From the UHGV virus genome UHGV-1561195: a stretch of DNA of 12,053 nucleotides; one strand, written 5' to 3'. The stretch's first letter is position 1, and each line of letters opens with the position of its first letter. Made by a program: the position numbers and the translations under genes. Below the pieces are notes generated by a model that was not told where the DNA came from, did not search any database, and saw nothing but the letters and a program-made list of their open reading frames with translations. Source of the DNA: a virus. This document shows, piece after piece, positions 1 to 11,409 of the stretch.

Positions 1-16
1 CGATAGGACGGTAGAA

Positions 17-457
17 ATGCAGAAATATATTTTCAGTGCTGATAAAAATGCGTTTTTCCCTGTGGAGCTTAAAATTGCTTATCAGGAAGCGGGGAAATGG
101 CCTGATGATGGAATCGAAATTGACGACACTGCTGCCGCTGAATTTATGAAGGAAGCACCAGAAGGAAAGTACAGAGGTGTCATCGACGGAATGCCAGCAT
201 GGATTGATATTCCACCACCAACACATGAAGAACAGATTGCAGCAGCTGAATTGCAAAAGCAGCAATTGATTAATAAGGCCAACGCATACATAAACAGTAA
301 GCAATGGCCTGGTAAAGCAGCTATTGGTCGTCTGAAAGGTGAGGAACTGGCGCAATATAATTTGTGGCTGGATTATCTGGACGCACTGGAACTGGTCGAT
401 ACTTCCGGTGCTCCAGATATTGAATGGCCTACGCCTCCGGCAGTTCAGGCCAGATGA
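17..457 (+). CDS. Tail fiber assembly protein, alternative copy (Tfa'/U'-like) inside the invertible segment
   Basis: ATG at 17-19. C-terminus LWLDYLDALELVDTSGAPDIEWPTPP matches the conserved tail-fiber-assembly C-terminal motif as I recall it. Lies on the opposite strand to the rest of the operon and converges on the other tfa gene, overlapping it by 29 bp, as in Mu U/U' and e14 tfaP/tfaE. Confidence 0.75.
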   Translation: MQKYIFSADKNAFFPVELKIAYQEAGKWPDDGIEIDDTAAAEFMKEAPEGKYRGVIDGMPAWIDIPPPTHEEQIAAAELQKQQLINKANAYINSKQWPGKAAIGRLKGEELAQYNLWLDYLDALELVDTSGAPDIEWPTPPAVQAR

Positions 458-1022
458 CATCCGGCGCGGTGCTGGTATCTGTTGCCGTCACCGCGTCAAT
501 GTAATCCAGCACGGCGTTTAGTCGGGTGGTTTCTGTTTGCGTCAGCTTCCGTCCGGCCTGCAATTTCAGTTGAATAAGACTAATGGACGCCATTGCAGCA
601 TTAATCAGCGACTGGCGCTGTGTTTCTGCCGCTTCTACTGCAGCACCGTGCTGTGCCTCAGTATCTGTCACCCATTTTTCCCCATCCCATTTATCGTATG
701 GCGTTAACGGTGAAAGCGTGACATAACCGTCTTTGATGGCACCGATATAATCCACTGTAACGGCAGCGCCATTTTCGGTTGAGTAAACAGTCTCATGGCG
801 ATGGTCTTCTTCATGGTGCCATCCCTTCCCCGTAAATACTGCCACTTTCCCCGAAATGTTTTCGCCCGGGTCAATATAAGTGGAACAAGCGGGCATACTT
901 ACACCAGTATTAATATATTCATCAGACCAACCCGTATATTCATACGTTACTGCATCATAATAAAAACAACGCATATCACCCGGTACTGTAGCCAGCCCAT
1001 TTTCATCAAAAACAGGTTTCAT
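429..1022 (-). CDS. Tail fiber assembly protein (Tfa/U-like)
   Basis: 197 aa. N-terminus [11 protein letters not shown]...EYTGWSDEYINTGVSMPACSTYIDP and C-terminus LDYIDAVTATDTSTAPDVIWPELP are typical of the Tfa family. Its ATG overlaps the tail-fiber stop (TAATG), indicating translational coupling. Confidence 0.8.
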   Translation of the reverse strand: MKPVFDENGLATVPGDMRCFYYDAVTYEYTGWSDEYINTGVSMPACSTYIDPGENISGKVAVFTGKGWHHEEDHRHETVYSTENGAAVTVDYIGAIKDGYVTLSPLTPYDKWDGEKWVTDTEAQHGAAVEAAETQRQSLINAAMASISLIQLKLQAGRKLTQTETTRLNAVLDYIDAVTATDTSTAPDVIWPELPEA

Positions 1023-1768
1023 TATTTAGCCCTCACCAGAAAGTTAAATGCGATGTTACGTGGCCTGACGGCAATAAAATTCACACCATCACCCACTGAA
1101 TTACTGGTGTAATGGTATCGAGAGAAACCCGGCTCGTGTGCTGATATTCCATCGTGATTAGCAATCGAATGGCCGGAGCCCTCTGGATAATTACCTCCAA
1201 ATTGCGATAAAGATGTTGCTGCCTGCCAGCTTAATAATGCTCGCCCACTATCCACCCCGCACCCATCATCCCAGATACGAATGAAATCACCCCGTGCGTC
1301 AGGTAATACCAGCGACGGAAACACTTTCGCCAGCACAGGGTAATCAGTGGCAGAAAATTTCGCTCCGTTGAACTTCAAAAACACCATACCGGACCAGCTG
1401 TTGATTACGGTATTTGGCATTGCGGCGGAGGGCCAGAAGAACGGAACTCCAATAGCCGGAGCACCTTCTCCCAAACCAAGGTTTTCGAGAGCCGTTTGCA
1501 CAGTGCCATCCGATTTGATATCGCCAAACGGATTCTTGCGGCTTAACAGCAGCGCACGAAGCGCGGTAAGCAACTGATCGTGCCGCGCCTTCTCCAGACT
1601 GGCACCGGAGGCCTCCACCACGCTGCAAAGTTCTTCCTGCAACATGTCAAAGTAGTCATCATCCAAATCGGTGGCAGGCGTACCGGTCTGGGGGTTACCA
1701 CGGGTAAAACCGTTCTTACCCGCGCCGAACTTATCCTTCTGCGCGGTTTTCGTGTCTATACGATGCAT
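1022..1768 (-). CDS. Tail fiber protein, short, with phage tail collar domain; constant N-terminal part (about aa 1-96) joined to an invertible variable C-terminal part
   Basis: 248 aa. The segment [49 protein letters not shown] matches the tail collar domain pattern (YP.LF...LPDLRG.F.R.WD.G.G.D.GRAL). GGAG-type ribosome-binding site 7-8 nt upstream of the ATG at 1768. A Hin/Gin-type crossover site lies inside the gene at 1466-1491. Confidence 0.8.
1466..1491. other. Candidate DNA invertase crossover site (gix/pix/hix-like, 26 bp): TTCTCCCAAACC-AA-GGTTTTCGAGAG
   Basis: Two 12-bp imperfect inverted half-sites flank a central AA dinucleotide. Compare hixL TTCTTGAAAACC-AA-GGTTTTTGATAA and gixL TTCCTGTAAACC-GA-GGTTTTGGATAA, both recalled from memory. 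It sits inside the tail-fiber gene at codons 93-101, where the constant/variable junction is expected. Confidence 0.6.
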
Positions 1769-1771
1769 GGA

Positions 1772-2356
1772 TTACTCCGGATATTTAAAAATTACGTAAG
1801 TATGCGACGGGCAGAGTTTGTTAAGCACACATTCGACAACGGTGTCGCCCCAGATACGCAGTGCGGAATCACAGGGATCGCCACATGTCATCCAGGTGGT
1901 GTTGGTGGCGGCTGGCATGTTGACCTGCCAGTAATACCGCCATTCAGGCGCGTTCACCGCGTCAGTACAGGCCGATGAGCAGGTGAACGTGCTTTTGTCG
2001 TATCGCGTGATGGTGGCATCCGGTCTGCCCAGGGCAGCAAGCTGTGCAAGATAAAAATCCTCGTTGATGCCGCCCGCCAGATTAACCTTCGCATCCAGTC
2101 GTTGCTGACGCTGGCGAAGGGTCTGTGTCCCTGCGGGAATACATTCATCCGGCAGGCCGCACAGACGCTCCCAGCGATTTATCAGTTCGGTGGTGGTGCG
2201 CGGATCCAGCTCCCGCATCAGGGCATCCGCACGCTGATGAATGCGGGTTAATGACGGTGCCGCACCGGCAATCGCCGGATCGCTGGCTGACCACGCCGGA
2301 CCGGGGGGCAACAGTGCCGACAACAGACGGATGTAATCATCGTTTGTCACGTCCAT
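1772..2356 (-). CDS. Mu gp48-like / DUF2313 (YmfQ-like) tail or baseplate protein
   Basis: 194 aa. Occupies the position between the J-like baseplate gene and the tail fiber, as Mu gp48 and e14 ymfQ do. Overlaps the upstream J-like gene by 10 nt. Family assignment is from memory. Confidence 0.7.
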
Positions 2357-3405
2357 GAAATCGTCCCCAGTACCGCCAGTTCATTTTTTGCAATGGAGAT
2401 ATTGTCTGCCGGTGCAAGCAACTGATGGCTGTATTCCCCGTTCGCACCGGAAATCGCCTCACTGATACGCGACACCTTCAGTTCTCCCTGCGGATAACCA
2501 TCACGCAGCAGGAACGAACGCAACTCGGCGGTGATGGCAGCCCGTATTTCCGGTGTGTCCGGCGTCACGCGGATATGAAAATCCACTTTATGCGCCACCG
2601 GCCTGAATACATACAAATCAGAGCCTGCCACCGGGGCCAGTGGCTCAATGTGTTGTCTTGCCGCCGTTTCCGTTGATTCTTCCGGAATGGGATTAATCAG
2701 GTCACTGCCGGCAATCATCACACCGACAGTCCCCGTTCCCATCCAGTGGCGGTATGTCCATGCACGGGTAATGCCGGGCACTTCTTTAGCCCAGACAACA
2801 TAGTCCCCGTCAGCCCCGCCCTGAGGCGTCCAGTAATACCGCTCAATGACGCGGGCGCGCCACGTTTCCAGATCTTCAGTATCGAATCCGCCAGTCAGGG
2901 TATCTGCAACACCGGAAGACGGCAGACCATTCACCGGCGTGACCAGGATTAATGCCGTACCGTCGTCAGCGTTACCGACCGCGCCTGCACTTGAGCAAGT
3001 GATCGGCACGCGCAGGACACCACCGGAGCTGGTTGCATCAGCAGTTGCCGTGTACTGAACCAGGTCATCGCGCTGAATCACGCTCCCGGCAGTCACCTTC
3101 AGGCCATCGCTGACACCTCCCCAGCGCATATACCCGCTGGCAGCCGTGGCCCCCTTGCGCGGACACCGTTTCATCGCAGCATGTCGCGCCAGCCAGGACT
3201 CATCGCACAGGTCAGGCAGCATGTTCATTGCCAGATAATCGATGTAACCGTAAACCGTATGCAGCGCCGCCGCATACACCTTTGCCCGCACGTCTTCATC
3301 CATGCGCCGGAGCGTGTCGCTGACGTCCAGCCTGGCGAATAAATCGTTACGGAGCATACTGATATTTTCTGCCAGCGTCGGGCGCTGAAATTCACTGTCC
3401 GCCAT
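2347..3405 (-). CDS. Baseplate J-like protein (Mu gp47 / P2 gpJ family)
   Basis: 352 aa. Its size and its position after the gp46-like gene match Mu gp47, and the sequence resembles the Baseplate_J family as recalled. ATG at 3405. Confidence 0.8.
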
Positions 3406-3820
3406 GCGTTATCGCACTCCACAGATCATCAAAAGAAATCATTACCGGTCCGTCACGACGCCAGAGAGTGATACTGTTACCCAGTTCATTAATCCCGGTG
3501 CGGCGGATATCCAGATCAATACGGGACACCACGCCATCATCAATCATCCATTGCAGGCATTCGCGGATATACCCCCTTACCGTCTGCACCAGCTGATTGG
3601 TCAGTTTGCTGCGCTGAAGCAGCCACAGTCGGGAGCCGTAACGGTCATTCTGTACCGCAGGCCAGGTATCCCCCCACCATCCCATCGGGACGTCGGCGTT
3701 GTCATCAGGCTCCGCCCGCCGCCAGGTAAACAGGGAAATCACCACGGCGCGGGTCAGCGGATCCAGCGGTGCGCTGGCGCAGGTGCGTTTACCGTTCACC
3801 GTCAGCCACAGTTCCATCAT
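3392..3820 (-). CDS. Mu gp46-like baseplate protein (gp25/W-like)
   Basis: 142 aa. Position and size match Mu gp46. ATG overlaps the upstream stop (ATGA). Confidence 0.7.
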   Translation of the reverse strand: MMELWLTVNGKRTCASAPLDPLTRAVVISLFTWRRAEPDDNADVPMGWWGDTWPAVQNDRYGSRLWLLQRSKLTNQLVQTVRGYIRECLQWMIDDGVVSRIDLDIRRTGINELGNSITLWRRDGPVMISFDDLWSAITHGGQ

Positions 3821-4365
3821 GCCTCCATCGCTTTATCCGGTTTGTCGGTGTTACTGCCCTGACCGTTCTCTCTGTGACGATGCCCGTTATAGGCAAGCCG
3901 CATCGCTGACATGGTGGTGCCGCCGGAGTCGCACAGGTCTTTCACCTGTCCTGTCACTTCCAGGTCCATTTCAAAACGTGCTTCAGGTGCATTGCGAAAC
4001 GTGATCGTTTTACCTGCACCGTCCACCACGATCCCCTCCCGGGTCAGCGTCACGGACTGCCCCTGATCGTCATAGACAGCCACCTCACCCGTCTGCAGCC
4101 CTTTCAGCCGGTAGCGACGGTCCGACACCGTAACAACCACCGCATGAGAACGGTCGCCATCCGGAAACAACACCACCGCTTCCGCACCGCTGTTTGCCCT
4201 TGCGGTAAAACCGTAGGGTTCAAGATGTTCAACCCCGGCTTTGGGTTCACCGGCAATCAGGGACACATCCACGGTCTGACATTTCGTGGCGGCACTGATG
4301 CTTTTTACCACGGCCCGCCCAATCAGGCCGAGGAGTTGTCGCTGCATGGCTTCAATCGTCCTCAT
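3817..4365 (-). CDS. Baseplate assembly/spike protein (Mu gp45 / gpV-like)
   Basis: 182 aa. Position and size match Mu gp45. ATG at 4365 overlaps the hub-gene stop by 1 nt. Confidence 0.75.
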   Translation of the reverse strand: MRTIEAMQRQLLGLIGRAVVKSISAATKCQTVDVSLIAGEPKAGVEHLEPYGFTARANSGAEAVVLFPDGDRSHAVVVTVSDRRYRLKGLQTGEVAVYDDQGQSVTLTREGIVVDGAGKTITFRNAPEARFEMDLEVTGQVKDLCDSGGTTMSAMRLAYNGHRHRENGQGSNTDKPDKAMEA

Positions 4366-5444
4366 CAGAACGGGTCCTCCTGTACTCTGGCTTTTTTCTT
4401 TTTCCGCGCGCCGGGGGCTTCGGGTTCAGGCAGATAAGCATCAGGCGGGCCGACACGGATTTCCGTCAGGGTGCCGTTCTGGTCCTGAGTAAACGTGACT
4501 TCCGAGACAAGCAGTTCGGTATTGTCGAAACCACAGACCGGATCGAAGACAATCACCCGCTGGTTGGGCTGCCACAGCGTACCGTTACCCTGTCGCCAGC
4601 CCTGCACCACATAGGTGGTTTCATCCGTCCGCGCCGCCCGTTGTCGGGCTTCAAAGTCAGCACGGGCAATACAGCCTGCCCCCGTAGCCTGCCCTGTCTG
4701 CCTGATATACATCGGACGGTAACGGGCAATAAATGCGTCCTCTGTGCGGGCCCGCAGCGCGGTGGTGGTGGCCTCACCGAAATCATCGTCGTTTCCGGCA
4801 CGCTGCCCCGCCACCTGGTAAACTGAAAACCGCTCCCGGATACTCTTCTCCGTATCACAGGAAAGGATGTTTTCCCCAAGTACCAGCGCGGTATGTGCCC
4901 GCGTTGAGCCAATACAACCAATCACCAGCCTGCCGTGCGGGTCGTCATAAGCCAGCGCCTGCTGCTGACCGAGTATTTTGTTGATCACCTCGATCACCGT
5001 TTCACCGTGATCAGGCTGGACATCCGGAATAACACCCGACGGCGCACCGCTGTTCACCACCTCAATGCCGAAAGGCGCAGCAAGCGCCTGCGCAATCTGT
5101 ACCAGCGATCGTCCGTTAAATTGTGTCGGTTCGGCTGCACAATCAATCAGGTCAGCGGTCAGACTGCGTCCGGCAATACCGGTGCTGACCGAACGGGCAT
5201 CGTAACGAACGGGCGTCGCCTCCACCCAGCCGGTGATCACCAGCTCATCACCAATCAGCACTTCCACTTTTGAACCGTTTTTAATGCGCGGCTGAAGCGT
5301 GGTGATACCCTCATCTCCCGGCCACTGGCGGGTGATCTCCACACTGAAATCCCGCGCCAGCCGTTCAATACCGGCACCGATGCGCACCGATGTCCAGCCA
5401 TTCCACTCCCGGCCATTTACCCGTAGCGTGACGTTATCGTTCAT
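4365..5444 (-). CDS. Baseplate hub / late control D-like protein (Mu gp44, P2 gpD family)
   Basis: 359 aa. Follows the DNA circulation protein as in Mu. Basic C-terminal tail ARKKKKARVQEDPF. Translationally coupled to both neighbours. Confidence 0.75.
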   Translation of the reverse strand: MNDNVTLRVNGREWNGWTSVRIGAGIERLARDFSVEITRQWPGDEGITTLQPRIKNGSKVEVLIGDELVITGWVEATPVRYDARSVSTGIAGRSLTADLIDCAAEPTQFNGRSLVQIAQALAAPFGIEVVNSGAPSGVIPDVQPDHGETVIEVINKILGQQQALAYDDPHGRLVIGCIGSTRAHTALVLGENILSCDTEKSIRERFSVYQVAGQRAGNDDDFGEATTTALRARTEDAFIARYRPMYIRQTGQATGAGCIARADFEARQRAARTDETTYVVQGWRQGNGTLWQPNQRVIVFDPVCGFDNTELLVSEVTFTQDQNGTLTEIRVGPPDAYLPEPEAPGARKKKKARVQEDPF

Positions 5445-6817
5445 TGCACTGGCACCTTCAGAGGGATCACCGGCACAAAACCGGGATGCGTAATGGCATT
5501 ACGCCGGATAATGTCCGCGTCACGCGCCGCGTTATCAAACCAGGTCGCCGCCAGCACCAGCGCGGGTAAAACCTCATCCGGTGTGCGCTGAATGATCCGT
5601 GCAGACTGTTCAAGGCGCGTGTTGATATCCGCATTCAGATCTGCTTTCACCCGGCGCAGCGCCAGAAACAGCGCATCACTGGTTGTACGGGACAACTCCT
5701 TATCAATTGCCGTATTCAGTGTGTCGCGAATGTCGGTCAGTTCTTCCCACGTTGGCAGGTCAACCGTGTTTTTCACCGCCGGTGCATTGTTCAGTGCCGG
5801 ATGCGTGACAGAAGGCCAGCCGGTGCTCTGCGCGGGTGTTGTTGACTGCCCCACTGTGGCATTCTGCATCACCGCGGAAGTTGTTGGCGCAGGCAATCGT
5901 GTGACGGCATACGCCGCTTCGCTGATTGCGGTCGTACGAAGGGTGCTGGCAACCACGTTACGCTGCTGCGTCGCCGTGGCGGTGGTTTTACTGTCCGTTT
6001 TCCAGACGCCGCGCGGTTGCAGATCGCTGCCGAGGCTGACACCGGAAAGCGTTTTGATCATGGTGACCAGGTCGCTGGCGTTACCATAAAGGCGTTTCCC
6101 GGTACGCCACATTTTCTGCACCTGCTCAACGAAATTTTTGCCTGACGATGGCGGCGGCAGAAGTACCGAGATATCCCCCTGCAACAGCCTGGCAGCATCC
6201 GATACGGCAGAATCCACCACTTTCATCGTATCAGAAACATACCCCAGCATTATGCTGGCATTACCAATAACGTCGTTCTGCACAAAATCTGCCACGCCAT
6301 CGATACTGAAACCACTGAAGCTGTCACTGATGCAGTCATCCAGTGCAGAACAGGATGACATCAGCGTCTGCGCCGTCGCCGCACCTGAAGTGGGGTAAGA
6401 GAGTTCTCCCGCTTCGACAAACTTCAGGTCAAAGCGGACAATACGCCCTTCACTCTTCGATGTGCTGACCCGAACTTCCCCGTCAACACAGACTTTCAGC
6501 TCACCGTAAGTCGGATGGACAAGCGTGCCGGGACCGGGTTTATTCAGCGCTTCAATCAGGCGATCGCGCTGGTCAAAGCAGTCATCTCCCACCACATAAG
6601 CTGTGATGGACGGGCGGAAAGTGATTTTCCCCAGGTCTTCGGTATAGGGTTTGTCGCGGTTCGGGTATTCGTGTGTTTCCACACGGCGACCGGTTCCCGC
6701 ACTTTCTTCTTCAACCTTAAACGATACGCCGCGAAATGACGCGTCCTGAAGTCTGTCACGCCAGCCTGAAGACGACGAAAGTAATGAAGGTCGGGTGGGA
6801 AATGAGGATAAATCCAT
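5441..6817 (-). CDS. DNA circulation protein (Mu gp43/N-like)
   Basis: 458 aa. N-terminal region WRDRLQDASFRGVSFKVEEESAGTGRRVETHEYPNRDKPYTEDLG resembles the DNA_circ_N domain as recalled. GAGGT ribosome-binding site 8 nt upstream of the ATG at 6817. Confidence 0.8.
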   Translation of the reverse strand: MDLSSFPTRPSLLSSSSGWRDRLQDASFRGVSFKVEEESAGTGRRVETHEYPNRDKPYTEDLGKITFRPSITAYVVGDDCFDQRDRLIEALNKPGPGTLVHPTYGELKVCVDGEVRVSTSKSEGRIVRFDLKFVEAGELSYPTSGAATAQTLMSSCSALDDCISDSFSGFSIDGVADFVQNDVIGNASIMLGYVSDTMKVVDSAVSDAARLLQGDISVLLPPPSSGKNFVEQVQKMWRTGKRLYGNASDLVTMIKTLSGVSLGSDLQPRGVWKTDSKTTATATQQRNVVASTLRTTAISEAAYAVTRLPAPTTSAVMQNATVGQSTTPAQSTGWPSVTHPALNNAPAVKNTVDLPTWEELTDIRDTLNTAIDKELSRTTSDALFLALRRVKADLNADINTRLEQSARIIQRTPDEVLPALVLAATWFDNAARDADIIRRNAITHPGFVPVIPLKVPVQ

Positions 6818-6841
6818 AGACTGACCTCAAAAAGGACTGCG

Positions 6842-8749
6842 TTATCGTGGAAAACGAAAAGGGGAATACCCCACATCGTGCGTGATTTTCATCAGGGGAT
6901 CGGCTTTGTCCGGTACATCAATTATCTTCATACCTGGCGGAGCATTCTCGAACGTGACTTTCAGCTCGCTGTGCTGTGTCATGGAAGAAGATGGATTCAA
7001 CAGCGGAACATTGGGTTTGTACTGACTCAGGCTGGCCTGATATTGCTCGTACTCTTTACGATCAAAAAAAGGCGTCCAGTCTGAAGCCAGAAACAGCCCT
7101 TTATTATCCAGCCAGTTAACCGTATCTTCAGGAACAACACTTTCCAGAGTATCTTTAACCGGCTCATACATCAGGGTTCCCAGAAAACCATATACCCCGG
7201 CCTTCCCGATAAAGCCGCGGCCTTTCCCCATCAATCCCGTTTCTGCCGATACCTTCCCCAGCGTACGCATCTCTCTGGTCACTGCGGTAATGGATTTGGT
7301 AACGTCAGCAACCCATTTGGTTGCCATAAACAGGGCAATCGCTTTCAGAACAGTTTCCCATCCCCCCATCGCCTGCGCCGTTTCATCCATCACGTGCCAG
7401 ACTTTTTTTATGACAGGACCTACGGTTTCCCAGTTATCAATAATGAGGTAAGCGCCACCAACCAGAAGAGCAATCAGCCCCTTAGCAGGCGTCATATTCA
7501 TCACACCGCCGAGAACTTTCATAATTCTGGACAAAGAGCCTGCAGCGGCTCCCACCGTCAGTAAGGCCAGACCGATTTTAGCAATGGTCTTAACGAGCTC
7601 CGGGTTTTCACGGACAAACGTTCTCACTTCCTCAAGGAGCGGTTTTACCGCTTCAAGACCATCATTAACCTCAGGAAGAAACGTTTCCCCCAGCGTGGAA
7701 GAAATGGCATCAAGTTGATTTTGCAGAAGTAAAAGCTGGTTTTCCGTCGTCGCTGCCCTCGAAGCATATTCCTTCTGCATCGAACTGCCATACTGCTGGG
7801 AATCCGCAACCCGCCTGAAGTTGGTACGCAACAAATCAAGGTTAGTCAGCAGAGGTGCTATCGCGCCCAGAGACTCTTTCCCGAACAGGGCATTCAGCAC
7901 AGCTGCCTGTTTTTCTTTAGGCACTTTAGCCATCGCATCCAGTACAGACAGCATGGTGCCCCGGGCATCTTTCTGCATATCAGCAGCTAATTTCTTCGGA
8001 TTGATCCGCAGAAAACGCAATGCCTGTTTCTGCGATTTTGTCGCAGAATTTCCCGCGGTCAGGGAAAGCATGAAGTTCTTGATCCCTGTGGCGGCAATTT
8101 CTGACTCCACGCCCATCCCGGCAATGGTTGCCCCCATTGCCGCGATTTCGCCGGAAGCCACACCTGCAACACCACCTAAAGGACCAATACGCGTAACAAT
8201 ATCGGAGATTTTCTTCGCGTTCGCCGGGCCGGTATTACCAAGGTAGTTGATTTTGTCAGCCAGCCCGGCCACTTCATCCTGCGTCATATTAAACGCAGTA
8301 CGCCACTGGGCCATCATCTGCCCGGACTCTTCAGCCGTGGTATCAAAGGCCACGCCCATCTTCACCGCATCAGTGGCAAACTGCATCAGTTCATCACGTG
8401 CAATCCCGGCCTGACCACCCGCCGCCACGATTTCAGCGATACCTTCCGCCGACATAGGCAGTTCGGTTGACAGGTCACGCACCTGCTCCGTCATGGCCTT
8501 AAACGCATCCGGCGTATCCAGACCGTCCACCACTTTGCGGACATCAGCCATCTTCGATTCAAGGGTGATGGCTGATTTTACAGGGAGTACCAGTGCCCCC
8601 ATTATTGCAGTACCCGCCCCGGCAGCGCCCAGAGCAAGGCTGGAGACTTCTTTCTGAAATCCCTTAAGCTGACGCTGCATACCTTTAAGCGGGCCGGATA
8701 GCCTGTCAACGGCGGTGATGATGGCTTTCAGCTGAAAATTATCAGCCAT
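6842..8749 (-). CDS. Tail tape measure protein
   Basis: 635 aa, Ala/Gly-rich and predicted largely helical, with a hydrophobic segment (IAKIGLALLTVGAAAG). Sits after the chaperone gene. GAGGAG ribosome-binding site upstream of the ATG at 8749. Confidence 0.85.
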   Translation of the reverse strand: MADNFQLKAIITAVDRLSGPLKGMQRQLKGFQKEVSSLALGAAGAGTAIMGALVLPVKSAITLESKMADVRKVVDGLDTPDAFKAMTEQVRDLSTELPMSAEGIAEIVAAGGQAGIARDELMQFATDAVKMGVAFDTTAEESGQMMAQWRTAFNMTQDEVAGLADKINYLGNTGPANAKKISDIVTRIGPLGGVAGVASGEIAAMGATIAGMGVESEIAATGIKNFMLSLTAGNSATKSQKQALRFLRINPKKLAADMQKDARGTMLSVLDAMAKVPKEKQAAVLNALFGKESLGAIAPLLTNLDLLRTNFRRVADSQQYGSSMQKEYASRAATTENQLLLLQNQLDAISSTLGETFLPEVNDGLEAVKPLLEEVRTFVRENPELVKTIAKIGLALLTVGAAAGSLSRIMKVLGGVMNMTPAKGLIALLVGGAYLIIDNWETVGPVIKKVWHVMDETAQAMGGWETVLKAIALFMATKWVADVTKSITAVTREMRTLGKVSAETGLMGKGRGFIGKAGVYGFLGTLMYEPVKDTLESVVPEDTVNWLDNKGLFLASDWTPFFDRKEYEQYQASLSQYKPNVPLLNPSSSMTQHSELKVTFENAPPGMKIIDVPDKADPLMKITHDVGYSPFRFPR

Positions 8750-9157
8750 GCTTCATCTCCTCATTTATACGGACGGCCTCTGCCTCCAGATCAGCAAAGT
8801 GGGAAATAGCCGTCCGGCGAAGTTCAAGGGGGTTTAATTTCCAGAACCACGCGACATTGTAGAATCGCTTCCGGAGGTCTCTTCCGTCTCCAAGCCGGTA
8901 AAAAAACGCATTACAATCATGCCTGCCTTGAAAATATCCAGCTTCGTCATCTGCGCTGCAGACGAGCGCGGGATCCCGGCCAGAAGCGGGATATATTTCA
9001 GCGCCACCTGACTGTCCATTTTCATACCACCATCAGGCGAAACAGAGAAAGGGAACCCCAGCGCCTCAATCTCGTCATACGTAGGCTCACGTATTTCCAG
9101 CACATGCAGTGTTTCTTTGTGGGCGATGATCGGTTTTTTAAGTACAAGCTCAATCAC
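8742..9157 (-). CDS. Predicted -1 frameshift-extended tail chaperone (G-T / E+E'-like fusion product)
   Basis: After a -1 slip at T-TTT-TTT (8900-8906), the new frame stays open for 52 codons (YRLGDGRDLRKRFYNVAWFWKLNPLELRRTAISHFADLEAEAVRINEEMKHG) and stops at TGA 8742-8744, overlapping the tape-measure ATG at 8749. Translated by hand from the sequence. Confidence 0.45.
8834..9157 (-). CDS. Tail assembly chaperone (Mu gp41 / P2 gpE / lambda gpG-like), in-frame product
   Basis: 107 aa, acidic, located between tube and tape measure. GTG start at 9157 overlaps the tube stop (GTGA), with an AAGGGG ribosome-binding site upstream. Contains the slippery heptamer. Confidence 0.7.
   Translation of the reverse strand: MIELVLKKPIIAHKETLHVLEIREPTYDEIEALGFPFSVSPDGGMKMDSQVALKYIPLLAGIPRSSAAQMTKLDIFKAGMIVMRFFTGLETEETSGSDSTMSRGSGN
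8900..8906 (-). other. Slippery heptanucleotide T-TTT-TTT (X-XXY-YYZ), candidate programmed -1 ribosomal frameshift site
   Basis: Seven consecutive A on the plus strand at 8900-8906. In the chaperone reading frame this reads cgT TTT TTT acc. Confidence 0.5.
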
Positions 9158-9510
9158 TGGTAATCCCCTTCTTCACCGTGGAACTCAAGATCAACCGTGC
9201 CTTCTTCGGCATTATGGTTCGCTTCACCGTGCAGCCAGGCGGACGACAATACATAGACCTGACCGTTCGCCAGCTCGGCAGTGATGGTCATCTCATCAGA
9301 CGAGGTGATTTTGCTCACCGGAAAATTCTTCGGCACCTTGAAGGTCCCTTTGACATAAGGTGCACGGTGAGTTTCCTTGCGGTCCACTGAACCGTCCAGG
9401 CCGATGATGTCATCATTGACCGTCCTGTTCATGGGCACCTCAATGCCGCCGGTCAGCGATAGCTGCTGACCGTCAATTTTGAAATAACAGGTTCCCCCGA
9501 TACGGGCCAT
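9154..9510 (-). CDS. Tail tube protein (Mu gpM / P2 FII-like)
   Basis: 118 aa. Immediately follows the sheath-like ORF and precedes the chaperone. ATG at 9510 overlaps the upstream stop by 1 nt. Confidence 0.8.
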   Translation of the reverse strand: MARIGGTCYFKIDGQQLSLTGGIEVPMNRTVNDDIIGLDGSVDRKETHRAPYVKGTFKVPKNFPVSKITSSDEMTITAELANGQVYVLSSAWLHGEANHNAEEGTVDLEFHGEEGDYQ

Positions 9511-10793
9511 TATGCAGACTCCTCTGAATACTGAAGACGGAACTGGTTAACCACGGCAAAGACACGCAACTGGTTAACATAGTCAGGCGGGAACAGCGTG
9601 TTCAGGCGGTTCGGATCGCTGGCATCACGCTCCACAACCAGGTACTGCTTAAACAGTTCGTAGTTTTCCACGATCCCCGCACGCTCAAGCTGACGGTAGG
9701 TTGCCAGCAGTTCCCCTTTGATCACCGCCGGGGTGACAATCGCCTGACCGGGACCAAAGCGGGTACCGTCACTGGCAAGCTTGTGACGCCCGTACTTACT
9801 GGTAATGACGGATTTCAGTTTGCGCAGTACATACGCGCTGGTATGCAGCGTCTCACTGTCGAGGTAGCTGTTATCCGCAACCCCGTAAGCGTTTTTCCTG
9901 TACGTGGTGACATCACGCTGAATGCGCAGTACCCCACTTTCGACATACGCCGTTGCCACGCCATGAGACAGCAGGGTCTGTTGCTCGGTCATCGTGAACC
10001 GTTTCCCCTTCGGTGCAGGCAGCATACCCACCAGCTCACCGGTCTGCGTGGGACGTGCCGGATCGTTGCGAATAAACACCGCTGCGCGGGCGGTACGGCT
10101 TGCCGCCAGCTCGTCGGCTGGCGTCTGAGTGTCTTTTTCGTATCCCGCCAGGGTAATGTGCTGCTGGTTAAACTGGTCACCTGCGGTCACCAGTTCTGAC
10201 AGCGTGCCGATCTTTGCCGTATACACATGACCATACAGCTGACGCGCATAGCTCCAGCGACCGCTGGTATCGTTCATCTCGGTCAGCATGGGTGTGCGTT
10301 TACACATCAGTCGCGCCGGGCGAAAGACTTCCCACGCCTGTTTCTCTGTCGTGGCACCGGAATACACTTCCGCGCCAAACTCGTTATCACAGGCAAAACA
10401 ATACAGGGCAACACCGGCAGAGATTGCCGATTTGCCGTTCTTACGGGGGATTTCGGTATACACCTCCCGGAAGCGGCGCAGCCGGGAGCCTTTATTGACC
10501 CAGCCAAACGCGCAGCAGATCACAAAGAGCTGCCACGGCTCCAGCGTGATGGGCATCCTCTTGAATGCCCACTCACCCTTGGTGTGCGGCAACAGCTGAA
10601 TAAATTTGGCGGCCCGTTCAGCCAGGTCCTTGTCGAAGCGGTAACGAAACGACTTACTTTTTTCCGCCATCAGATCATCAAGATGGCGCTGGCAGGCCTG
10701 AATCACAAACTGGCAGGCCACAATCTTTCCGCGAACGACATCCCGGGCATACTGATTGGCAGCATTTACGTTGGGGTAAGATTTCCGGCTCAT
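9510..10793 (-). CDS. Chimeric ORF: N-terminal about 165 aa of large terminase (Terminase_1 ATPase fragment with Walker A PRKNGKS) fused in frame to about 260 aa of tail sheath C-terminus; probable deletion-scar pseudogene
   Basis: N-terminus [24 protein letters not shown]...FGW...[18 protein letters not shown]...[24 protein letters not shown] matches lambdoid TerL N-termini as recalled. The C-terminal part ([15 protein letters not shown]...[26 protein letters not shown]) is sheath-like and sits directly upstream of the tube gene. TerL-like sequence stops near aa 165 (about nt 10290). Confidence 0.6.
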
Positions 10794-11284
10794 GATTCGA
10801 TAATTTTCAGAAACGGGTTAGTGGCTTTCTTCTGCCCCGCCAGGCCAATCAGACGCTGGCGGCTGCTGGGGTCGAGTCCGAGCATTGCCCCCGTACTGCT
10901 CATCTCGGACTCCTGTTCTTTTTTGGCGGTCAGCTCAGGATTTTTGACCATACCGCCCATTGCACCGGTGATGGTGTTGCCCTGTCTGGCAATATTTTTC
11001 ACGGCACGTCGCCAGAACTCATAGGCCACACACCACCGCTCAAGCACCGCGAGGTCAGTCACGCACAGCAGGCCCTGACCGCAGAGTTCTTTGGTTGTCA
11101 GTTGCCACATGATCGTGGCGAGAGGGAGATCTTCTTCAGCGAACCACTCCGGTGGCTCAACACCTTTGATGGGCGTAAAAACAGGTTCATCTTTATTCAG
11201 GGCTCGCTTGCCGGGGTTTCCGGCCAGCGCCTTGCGCGCCGTTGGCTTGGGGCGACGCCCGGAACGCCCCGCCGTTCCAGCCAT
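10790..11284 (-). CDS. Terminase small subunit, P27 family
   Basis: From the ATG at 11284 the protein begins [36 protein letters not shown], matching the P27-family TerS N-terminus as recalled. AGGAG lies 8 nt upstream. The ORF track's longer start at 11293 is a GTG and adds only three codons. Confidence 0.8.
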
Positions 11285-11293
11285 ATGCGGCAC

Positions 11294-11409
11294 TCCTGGT
11301 TAAATTTCATTTTTCGCGGGTATAAAAAAACGATGGGGCGGGCAGTCCGGAAGACGTCAGGTCACAGGGATTTGACCCGCCCCTCCCCTCAGGAAGTTGA
11401 GAATCATTA
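11294..11409. promoter_or_regulatory. HNH-TerS intergenic region with GC-rich inverted repeat; candidate cos / terminase recognition region
   Basis: GGGGCGGG at 11335-11342 and CCCGCCCC at 11376-11383 form a perfect 8-bp inverted repeat with a 33-nt spacer. The spacer contains a GACGTC palindrome and a GGTCA/TGACC repeat. HK97-like phages place cos between the HNH and terminase genes. Confidence 0.3.

Follow-up and report, generated by a model that had tools for sequence, protein, structure and literature searches.

A very likely P2-type programmed -1 frameshift site in the tail chaperone gene of a deleted SfIV-like prophage

Introduction

In phage lambda, the slippery heptamer of the tail chaperone gene is G_GGA_AAG. 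Tail assembly chaperones of the conserved frameshift class of tailed phages (the Xu, Hendrix and Duda 2004 class) come as a short and a long protein in a fixed ratio, both of them needed for tail assembly. Work on the lambda G/GT frameshift (Levin et al. 1993; Xu et al. 2004, 2013, 2014) is reviewed in PMC5009743, and PMC3091744 cites Christie et al. 2002 for the E/E+E' frameshift of the P2 tail chaperone. For the chaperone of phage Mu, PMC5009743 and PMC2628397 report a -2 shift. In phage SfIV, the chaperone gene was described as a hypothetical protein in the genome paper.

We analysed a viral sequence of 12,053 nucleotides (UHGV-1561195), the whole of which is referred to below as the window. 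It carries the tail chaperone gene of a prophage of the SfIV-like kind, which has an HK97-type head and a contractile tail of the Mu type, and, judging from sequence comparison, we consider it very likely that this gene contains a programmed -1 ribosomal frameshift cassette of the P2 E/E+E' type.

Results

The chaperone gene (Table 1) occupies the position characteristic of the conserved chaperone frameshift class, between tube and tape measure, in the canonical order tube, chaperone, tape measure according to Pfam and PHROG, and its GTG start overlaps the stop of the tube gene. Its N-terminal part belongs to Pfam PF10109 (Phage_TAC_7), the family of P2 E, with a score above the gathering cut-off of 25 bits, and the protein matches phrog_166 with E=1e-25. 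Compared with the gp12 locus of SfIV, the chaperone locus shows 99.1% identity. The surrounding tail module, assigned with Pfam and PHROG, is Mu-like and comprises sheath, tube, gpN-like, gpP-like, gp45-like and DNA-circularisation-type baseplate genes. A sequence search against solved structures returned nothing significant, and no Rfam family matched anywhere in the window.

Table 1. Features of the chaperone locus and of the neighbouring deletion, in window coordinates
Feature	Position	Strand	Description
Tail assembly chaperone gene ('G'/'E' analogue)	9157..8834	minus	GTG start; frame-0 product 107 aa
Tail tube gene, directly upstream of the chaperone	9154..9510	minus	PF10618 E=2e-33; phrog_185 E=1e-44
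Tape measure gene, 635 aa	6842..8749	minus	PF10145 E=6e-43; phrog_28 E=1e-142
Putative slippery heptamer T_TTT_TTT	8906..8900	minus	X_XXY_YYZ register; codons 85 and 86, Phe-Phe
Predicted -1 frame extension ('T'/E' analogue)	8742..8900	minus	52 codons plus TGA; YRLGDG...EEMKHG
Dual-coding overlap	8834..8899	minus	first 22 extension codons; frame 0 encodes the tail TGLETEETSGSDSTMSRGSGN
Apparent intergenic gap of 84 nt, chaperone stop to tape-measure start	8833..8750	minus	last 28 codons of the extension
Terminase-sheath fusion, in frame	9510..10793	minus	N-terminus of terminase large subunit (~170 aa) and C-terminal 250 aa of sheath, from the Pfam and PHROG domain split

A previous sequence-only reading of this DNA had pointed to a run of seven T in the X-XXY-YYZ register about 24 codons before the chaperone stop. 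The run is indeed in register, with frame 0 reading ATG CGT TTT TTT ACC and both the P-site and the A-site codon being TTT, and the stop codon comes 23 codons after the first slippery codon. Counted from its last T (8900), the -1 frame stays open as far as the TGA at 8744..8742, and translation gave the 52 codons previously counted, corresponding to a predicted fusion product of 138 aa (86 + 52). The heptamer lies in register within the overlap of two ORFs, the second of which is shifted and lacks a usable start of its own, an arrangement that defines the class. It had also been claimed that the extension accounts exactly for the apparent gap before the tape measure gene, which is the case for the -1 frame; the +1 frame closes after only 28 codons in the window, before the gap is filled, and the Mu-type layout, with an extension in the -2/+1 frame, is not present in the window. 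The proposed overlap of the TGA with the tape-measure ATG held in part: the extension and tape measure ORFs do overlap by 8 nt, but the TGA lies two bases past the ATG (8749..8747; context ATGGCTGA) and not on it. Within the tape measure gene, the same strand carries another T7 run at 7064..7070.

Translation of the extension ORF from a start of its own was ruled out, as there is no usable start codon: the only ATG, GTG or TTG in the window's -1 ORF is at codon 48 of the 52, and in three relatives (L012, L017, L044) the -1 ORF is without any start codon. Along with a separate small gene, one could imagine that the true gene is a single unshifted ORF, in which a sequencing error in the homopolymer produced the T7 run, and straight read-through proteins of 137-142 aa do exist in databases (e.g. 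P0001, P0007). These proteins, however, derive from different genomic indels and are not a common unshifted state: P0001 has a T5 run, and P0007 carries an additional A ten codons downstream. Moreover, the two-frame arrangement with its frame-0 stop recurs in over 60 loci that were sequenced independently, among them finished phage genomes, and we regard both the separate gene and the sequencing error as scarcely credible. A database search for an already annotated slippage product gave no exact product, only such indel-generated read-through alleles.

We estimated how often a comparable arrangement would arise by chance. In-register heptamers occur 14 times in the 3693 codons of the window's 14 genes, and at 6.7% of positions in the window the -1 frame has 52 or more open codons. 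The chaperone heptamer is the only one of the 14 to combine both properties. By a rough estimate, one given gene would be expected to show such a combination within its last ~25 codons less than 1% of the time.

Conservation of the heptamer and of the extension frame among orthologues had been suggested as a check. Genome loci of relatives were retrieved with the N-terminal 84 aa only, so that the set is unbiased toward having the extension. Both the in-register heptamer and the -1 extension are kept in 39 of the 41 loci, the most distant keepers being found in Rhodocyclaceae, Acetobacteraceae, Methylococcales and Kaistia at 33-40% identity. They are likewise kept in eight named phages (SfIV, phiP27, ST64B, F1055, SfII, SfV, Pantoea AH07 and Yersinia YeP1), where the extension has 52-53 codons and the predicted fusion has a constant length of 138-140 aa, while the frame-0 product varies from 89 to 111 aa. 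Among relatives in general the -1 extension spans 50-61 codons and retains the motif [YF][ND]xAxxFW[RK]xNP...QAxRI, and its end lies at most ~14 nt from the tape-measure start in nearly all loci where this start could be placed; the overlap geometry with the tape measure recurs in relatives and in P2. In addition, many viral contigs of 35-45 kb in IMG/VR encode products identical to the predicted ones. The comparative data place the predicted chaperone frameshift site far beyond chance.

At the position of the heptamer, the eight phages and the 39 loci carry TTTTTTT, TTTTTTC, TTTTTTG or, once, GGGTTTT. This variation bears on whether the same 138-aa fusion could instead result from transcriptional slippage, in which RNA polymerase would stutter on the T7/A7 run and add an extra U to some mRNAs. 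A homopolymer of seven T is located exactly at the shift point in the window, and polymerase slippage is a known alternative route to such products (review PMC5009743); as the proteins would be identical or nearly so, the two kinds of slippage are inseparable from sequence alone. What the family keeps, however, is the X_XXY_YYZ register, which is always preserved, and not the length of the run, which is seven in the window, just six in many relatives (TTTTTTC or TTTTTTG) and four in L043; a long homopolymer conserved in length rather than in register was not found. Efficient polymerase slippage typically needs runs of about nine or more, and the shorter runs of this family count against it. 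In addition, the literature treats the shift at the homologous site of P2, TTTTTTG, as translational (PMC3091744). Transcriptional slippage consequently seems improbable to us.

The substitution pattern was analysed separately in each frame. In the gap, pN/pS is 0.17 in the -1 frame compared with 1.55 and 2.93 in the other two frames, and the variable alignment columns are distributed 9/5/25 over positions 1/2/3 of the -1 codons. The gap evolves as protein, under purifying selection in the -1 frame. In the dual-coding overlap, pN/pS is 0.40 in the -1 frame and 0.99 in frame 0. The frame-0 tail following the slip site, which has 3 to about 21 residues among relatives, looks dispensable.

A downstream stem-loop or pseudoknot, which had been put forward as a further check, was not detected. 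The 50 and 100 nt that follow the heptamer folded with energies no better than those of shuffled sequences (z -0.23 and -0.13), and RNAalifold predicted zero conserved pairs on 21 diverse relatives. An upstream Shine-Dalgarno-like stimulator is absent in the window, and none is conserved among relatives. The heptamer appears to work without a conserved stimulatory RNA structure.

We also compared the element as a whole with phage SfIV, from which it differs by one 7.4-kb deletion. By BLAST, window positions 11351..10282 correspond to SfIV 1..1070 and window positions 10295..1465 to SfIV 8485..17314, with the deletion junction at 10282..10295. The deletion takes the portal, capsid and adaptor genes, the neck/tail-completion genes gp06-gp09 and the first ~237 sheath codons, leaving the terminase-sheath fusion of Table 1. 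Neither 5,426 complete E. coli genomes nor IMG/VR yielded the junction. The element derives from an SfIV-like prophage through this 7.4-kb deletion, which in these searches is private to it.

None of the records of the eight named phages annotates the fusion product, and all of them leave an 'intergenic gap' of 84-141 nt that is in fact coding.

Discussion

The frameshift interpretation is strongly supported by the conservation of the heptamer and extension, by the protein-type substitution pattern in the -1 frame, by the lack of an independent start, and by the homology and layout shared with P2 E, as predicted when the locus was first likened to lambda G/GT and P2 E/E+E'. In the mechanism that we propose, most ribosomes would read CGU UUU UUU ACC in frame 0 and produce the 107-aa chaperone, whereas a minority would slip back by one base, with two tRNA-Phe on U_UUU_UUU both re-pairing perfectly. 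The shifted ribosomes would then read UAC CGG CUU... for 52 codons and stop at the UGA within the first codons of the tape measure gene, giving a fusion ...MRFF-YRLGDG...EEMKHG. Judging by analogy to lambda G/GT and P2 E/E+E', the N-terminal domain common to both products would coat the tape measure protein, and the rarer C-terminal extension would recruit the tube protein; the fixed ratio of short to long product would set up tail polymerisation, with neither product staying in the virion.

This is an instance of a textbook mechanism, real but ordinary, and it raises no new question on frameshifting or tail assembly. Its main value is for annotation: by the same analogy, recognising the site would add one essential tail protein to the proteome of serotype-converting and Stx phages of Shigella, Salmonella and E. 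coli, which are medically relevant.

The state of this particular copy has to be considered separately. It had been suggested that retention of the cassette in a headless element reflects selection, present or recent, on tail assembly. This suggestion found no support, given that the sheath is truncated by a private deletion and that the locus is nearly identical to that of SfIV. An intact contractile tail is unlikely, since the N-terminus of the sheath is lost and the remainder is fused to terminase, and the tail pathway is probably broken in this element. A complete tail gene set with intact sheath, as a tailocin or a headless element under selection would have, is not present, with the sheath truncated and gp06-gp09 gone. 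The cassette may therefore be functionless in this copy, though intact in sequence. On balance we lean toward reading it as a relic without present function, intact only because the killing deletion is recent, with no G/GT made or needed. The loss of the head, neck and sheath N-terminus genes, the absence of the junction from the E. coli genomes and IMG/VR, and the identity with SfIV all point in this direction, and a recent deletion explains the retention of the cassette, so that selection is not needed. Against it, the chaperone, tube, tape measure and baseplate genes are undisrupted and equal in length to those of SfIV, so that the late operon may still be expressed upon induction. The relic reading is compatible with the frameshift explanation, as it concerns this copy and not the mechanism.

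A compound interpretation would go further, holding that after the slip site the -1 frame alone is the real unit of selection, the frame-0 tail being neutral as its pN/pS and variable length would suggest, and that the intact chaperone and tape-measure cassette is kept in the defective prophage because it is still useful, either as a recombination reservoir for matched modules or by interfering with tail assembly of superinfecting SfV-like phages. For the idea of a still useful cassette, the sole grounds are its undamaged state and the modular exchange of chaperone and tape measure among Sf phages, and we consider the two proposals taken together to be very improbable.

The programmed -1 ribosomal frameshift that we favour is closest to that of P2. 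The N-terminal domains of both chaperones match PF10109 (P2 E with 47.8 bits, the window protein with 32.1 bits), the shift is -1 in both, and the heptamers, TTTTTTG in P2 and TTTTTTT here, are located at equivalent codons (near codon 85), following a conserved Gly/aromatic residue. In both, the stop of the fusion is 8 nt into the tape measure gene, and the window shows the pattern of the P2 family, a T_TTT_TTN near codon 85 with a fusion ending just inside the tape measure. The products have 91 aa (E) and 142 aa (E+E') in P2, and 107 and a predicted 138 aa here. A downstream hairpin was not found by folding in the window, in keeping with its reported absence in P2 (PMC3091744). The two differ in the frame-0 tail past the slip site, with ~21 residues here and ~6 in P2, in overall sequence identity, which is only about 16%, and in the tail module around the chaperone, which is Mu-like here (gpP, gp45, DNA-circularisation-type baseplate genes) and not P2-like. 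As for the extension, searched alone against Pfam its 52 aa gave no match at E<=10 and did not reach the threshold of PF06528 (Phage_P2_GpE). An HMM of 31 family extensions aligned to the PF06528 core of P2 E' with 16.8 bits, a score reached by 0 of 1000 shuffles (highest 9.6), and hhalign of the whole fusion against P2 gave a collinear but weak match (E=0.0015, probability 16.5%). These results suggest a remote relationship between the extension and P2 E'.

The lambda G/GT site occupies the same genomic place, with the major tail/tube gene on one side and the tape measure gene on the other, and its logic, two products with a common N-terminus made through a low-level -1 shift and neither of them in the virion (PMC5009743), is the one that we propose here. 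Between lambda and the window no detectable sequence similarity was seen, and the lambda tail is non-contractile. With Mu, the element shares the type of tail module, and the description of PF10109, 'E, or 41 or 14', includes Mu gp41. The Mu sequence, in contrast, has no in-register heptamer with a long -1 ORF, its +1/-2 frame being open for 55 codons, and the +1-frame peptide of Mu scored 8.8 bits against the extension profile, within the shuffle range. The comparison suggests that phages with Mu-like tails can use a P2-type -1 site instead of the -2 shift of Mu.

Anatomy of the proposed frameshift site

The tail assembly chaperone gene is read in frame 0 as ...ATG CGT TTT TTT ACC GGC..., and the seven T stand in the X_XXY_YYZ register, as the sequence-only reading had proposed; they fall on codons 85-86. 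That reading had placed the site about 24 codons before the chaperone stop, and the location holds, with the first slippery codon 23 codons before it. The -1 frame, entered at the last T, translates as YRLGDGRDLRKRFYNVAWFWKLNPLELRRTAISHFADLEAEAVRINEEMKHG. This 52-codon continuation (the extension) had been described as ending on the tape measure start; its TGA indeed falls there, but two bases past the ATG and not on it. Because the tape measure ATG lies at 8749 (context ATGGCTGA), the extension overlaps the tape measure ORF by 8 nt and exactly fills the 84-nt space between the two genes, confirming the earlier account of this gap. The predicted products are a frame-0 protein of 107 aa and a fusion of 138 aa (86 + 52).

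As a chance control within the window, we scanned 14 genes (3693 codons) for in-register heptamers and found 14, while the -1 frame was open for at least 52 codons at 6.7% of positions. Heptamer and long open -1 frame were combined only at the chaperone site. The tape measure gene contains two more in-register homopolymer heptamers, TTTTTTT and AAAAAAA, whose -1 frames close after 0 and 6 codons, respectively; a slip at either would yield no more than a truncated protein, and both are probably incidental. An in-register CCCTTTT was also seen 6 codons upstream of the tape measure stop, followed by a -1 frame that is open for 33 codons and overlaps the beginning of the next gene.

Coordinates of the proposed frameshift site and of neighbouring features
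Feature	Coordinates	Strand	Description
Chimeric "sheath" ORF	10793..9510	-	427 aa; residues 1-170 terminase large subunit ATPase N-terminus, 171-427 sheath C-terminus (Pfam, PHROGs)
Terminase/sheath junction	10282..10295		in-frame fusion
Tube gene	9510..9154	-	PF10618 (Pfam, PHROGs)
Chaperone gene	9157..8834	-	107 aa; GTG start overlaps tube gene stop; PF10109 Phage_TAC_7, 32.1 bits vs cut-off 25; phrog_166
Heptamer	8906..8900	-	T_TTT_TTT
Space before tape measure gene	8833..8750	-	84 nt
Extension stop	8744..8742	-	TGA
Tape measure gene	start 8749	-	635 aa; PF10145
Heptamer in tape measure gene	7403..7409	-	AAAAAAA
Heptamer in tape measure gene	7064..7070	-	TTTTTTT
Heptamer near tape measure stop	6857..6863	-	CCCTTTT
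Next gene	6817..5441	-	
Mu-type baseplate genes		-	DNA_circ_N, GpP-like, Gp45 (Pfam, PHROGs)

Conservation of the heptamer and of the extension

All eight named phages carry the in-register heptamer, as TTTTTTT (SfIV, phiP27, ST64B, F1055, YeP1) or TTTTTTC (SfII, SfV, AH07); it follows a conserved G/R/N-F-F and lies at codon 84-89. In each of them the -1 frame stays open for 52-53 codons and overlaps the tape measure gene by 7-10 nt. The fusion keeps a length of 138-140 aa throughout, although frame-0 products measure 89-111 aa and apparent gaps 84, 123 or 141 nt. To avoid circularity, the alignment used to search genome and viral collections was restricted to the 84 N-terminal residues. The heptamer was found at the homologous position in 39 of the 41 genome loci (TTTTTTT, TTTTTTC, TTTTTTG and, once, GGGTTTT), the other two being spurious 15-residue matches in Bacteroidota. 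Extensions at the 39 loci measure 50-61 codons and, where the tape measure start could be placed, end about -10 to +14 nt from it, with one outlier (L023). The loci conserve the extension motif [YF][ND]xAxxFW[RK]xNP...QAxRI, which is kept as far as Rhodocyclaceae, Acetobacteraceae, Methylococcales and Kaistia, where the N-terminal part is 33-40% identical.

This recurrence, together with the origin of known read-through proteins from separate indels, led us to reject a sequencing error at the T7 run. Transcriptional slippage on this run, in place of ribosomal slippage, is the only serious mechanistic rival; however, what the family keeps is the reading register and not the run length, since T6 and GGGTTTT variants occur. 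The best explanation, which we consider very probable, is ribosomal: two tRNA-Phe would slip back -1 in tandem on U_UUU_UUU, giving a minority 138-aa fusion beside the 107-aa chaperone, with product roles inferred from lambda and P2.

RNA folding of the 50 and 100 nt 3' of the heptamer gave nothing better than shuffled sequences (z -0.23 and -0.13), RNAalifold on 21 relatives returned zero conserved pairs, no Shine-Dalgarno-like element was detected upstream of the heptamer, and Rfam gave no match. A stimulatory structure is likewise lacking in the account of P2 and relatives (PMC3091744).

Coding evidence for the extension

Seven sequences of the subgroup with the 84-nt gap were compared by pN/pS. 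For the gap, the -1 frame had a ratio of 0.17 and the other two frames 1.55 and 2.93; variable columns in the gap numbered 9, 5 and 25 at codon positions 1, 2 and 3. Within the overlap, the ratio was 0.40 in the -1 frame and 0.99 in the frame-0 tail: the chaperone tail after the slip site evolves neutrally, and constraint acts on the overlapping -1 frame instead. This tail (8834..8899 on the minus strand of the window, and L001-L048 among the relatives) is a low-complexity S/T/G/E stretch of 3 to ~21 residues. The -1 ORF has no ATG, GTG or TTG before codon 48 of 52 in the window, and none at all in the relatives' loci L012, L017 and L044. Independent initiation was therefore rejected, leaving continued synthesis from the chaperone as the only way to obtain the conserved extension domain.

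Annotation status and read-through alleles

The fusion is missing from the annotation of every phage record examined, although SfV, ST64B and phiP27 may already figure in earlier published surveys, and the SfIV genome paper lists ORF-12 as hypothetical and mentions no frameshift. When the fusion was searched against a protein database, no exact slippage product was returned. The full-length matches stem from genomic indels: P0001 carries a T5 run, and P0007, which is present on 661 contigs under the name of a Shigella flexneri bacteriophage protein, has one additional A ten codons past the heptamer. In Shigella flexneri P0003, P0004 and P0007, this extra A joins chaperone and extension in one ORF. 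Such alleles, P0001 included, would yield the long product only, and probably reflect prophage copies in decay or sequencing errors in homopolymers. The practical value of the site is an annotation correction.

Gene context and the deletion

The chaperone locus shares 99.1% identity with Shigella phage SfIV and 74-78% with phiP27, ST64B, F1055 and 118970_sal3. By BLAST, window 11351..10282 matches SfIV 1..1070 and window 10295..1465 matches SfIV 8485..17314; the aligned blocks therefore indicate a single deletion of ~7.4 kb (SfIV 1071..8484), and they overlap by 14 nt where they meet. The lost segment carried the genes for portal, protease and capsid, those for adaptor and neck (gp06-gp09), and ~237 codons at the 5' end of the sheath gene; its loss created the in-frame terminase/sheath fusion. 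From the junction through the baseplate, tail genes have essentially their SfIV lengths; the tail-fibre end differs.

The evidence gives no support to the earlier suggestion that selection has kept the cassette in a headless element: the deletion that took away the head genes cost the element its neck genes and part of the sheath as well, a search of 5,426 complete E. coli genomes and of IMG/VR did not find the junction, and many 35-45 kb viral contigs in IMG/VR encode identical chaperone products. A recent deletion is enough to explain the intact cassette.

Compared with window 6842..9157 (minus strand), SfI/SfII/SfV (L005, L006) are ~94% similar through the tube gene, with similarity ending ~37 nt into the chaperone gene, and the SfIV genome paper puts ORF-12 and the tape measure protein each at <50% identity; chaperone and tape measure thus appear to have been swapped as one module. 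The module comes in two allelic types, in which T7 goes with a gap of 84 nt and T6C with one of 141 nt.

Comparison with P2, lambda and Mu

The general phenomenon is textbook knowledge: the G-T frameshift is widely conserved among long-tailed dsDNA phages, with an efficiency 2-3-fold higher in P2-like phages than in lambda (PMC5009743). Mu lacks such a heptamer, and its open frame is +1/-2, running for 55 codons across the chaperone/tape-measure gap (L009, 1950..2117), in agreement with the reported -2 shift (PMC5009743, PMC2628397); the Mu +1-frame peptide scored 8.8 bits against the extension profile, which is not significant. As annotated, P2 has the layout of the window, with a T-rich -1 site (TTTTTTG), a short and a long product (E, 91 aa; E+E', 142 aa) and an E+E' reading frame that overlaps its tape measure gene, T, by 8 nt. 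P2 E shares family PF10109 with the chaperone of the window. P2 E' belongs to PF06528, a model that the window extension does not match; however, an HMM of 31 family extensions scored 16.8 bits against the PF06528 core of P2 E', a value reached by 0 of 1000 shuffles, and hhalign of the whole fusion with P2 E+E' gave a collinear, weak match. In conclusion, the conserved heptamer and extension, the coding signal of the -1 frame, the lack of an independent start and the P2 layout strongly support the proposed P2-type frameshift, and with it an unannotated member of the E/E+E' class within a Mu-like tail module.
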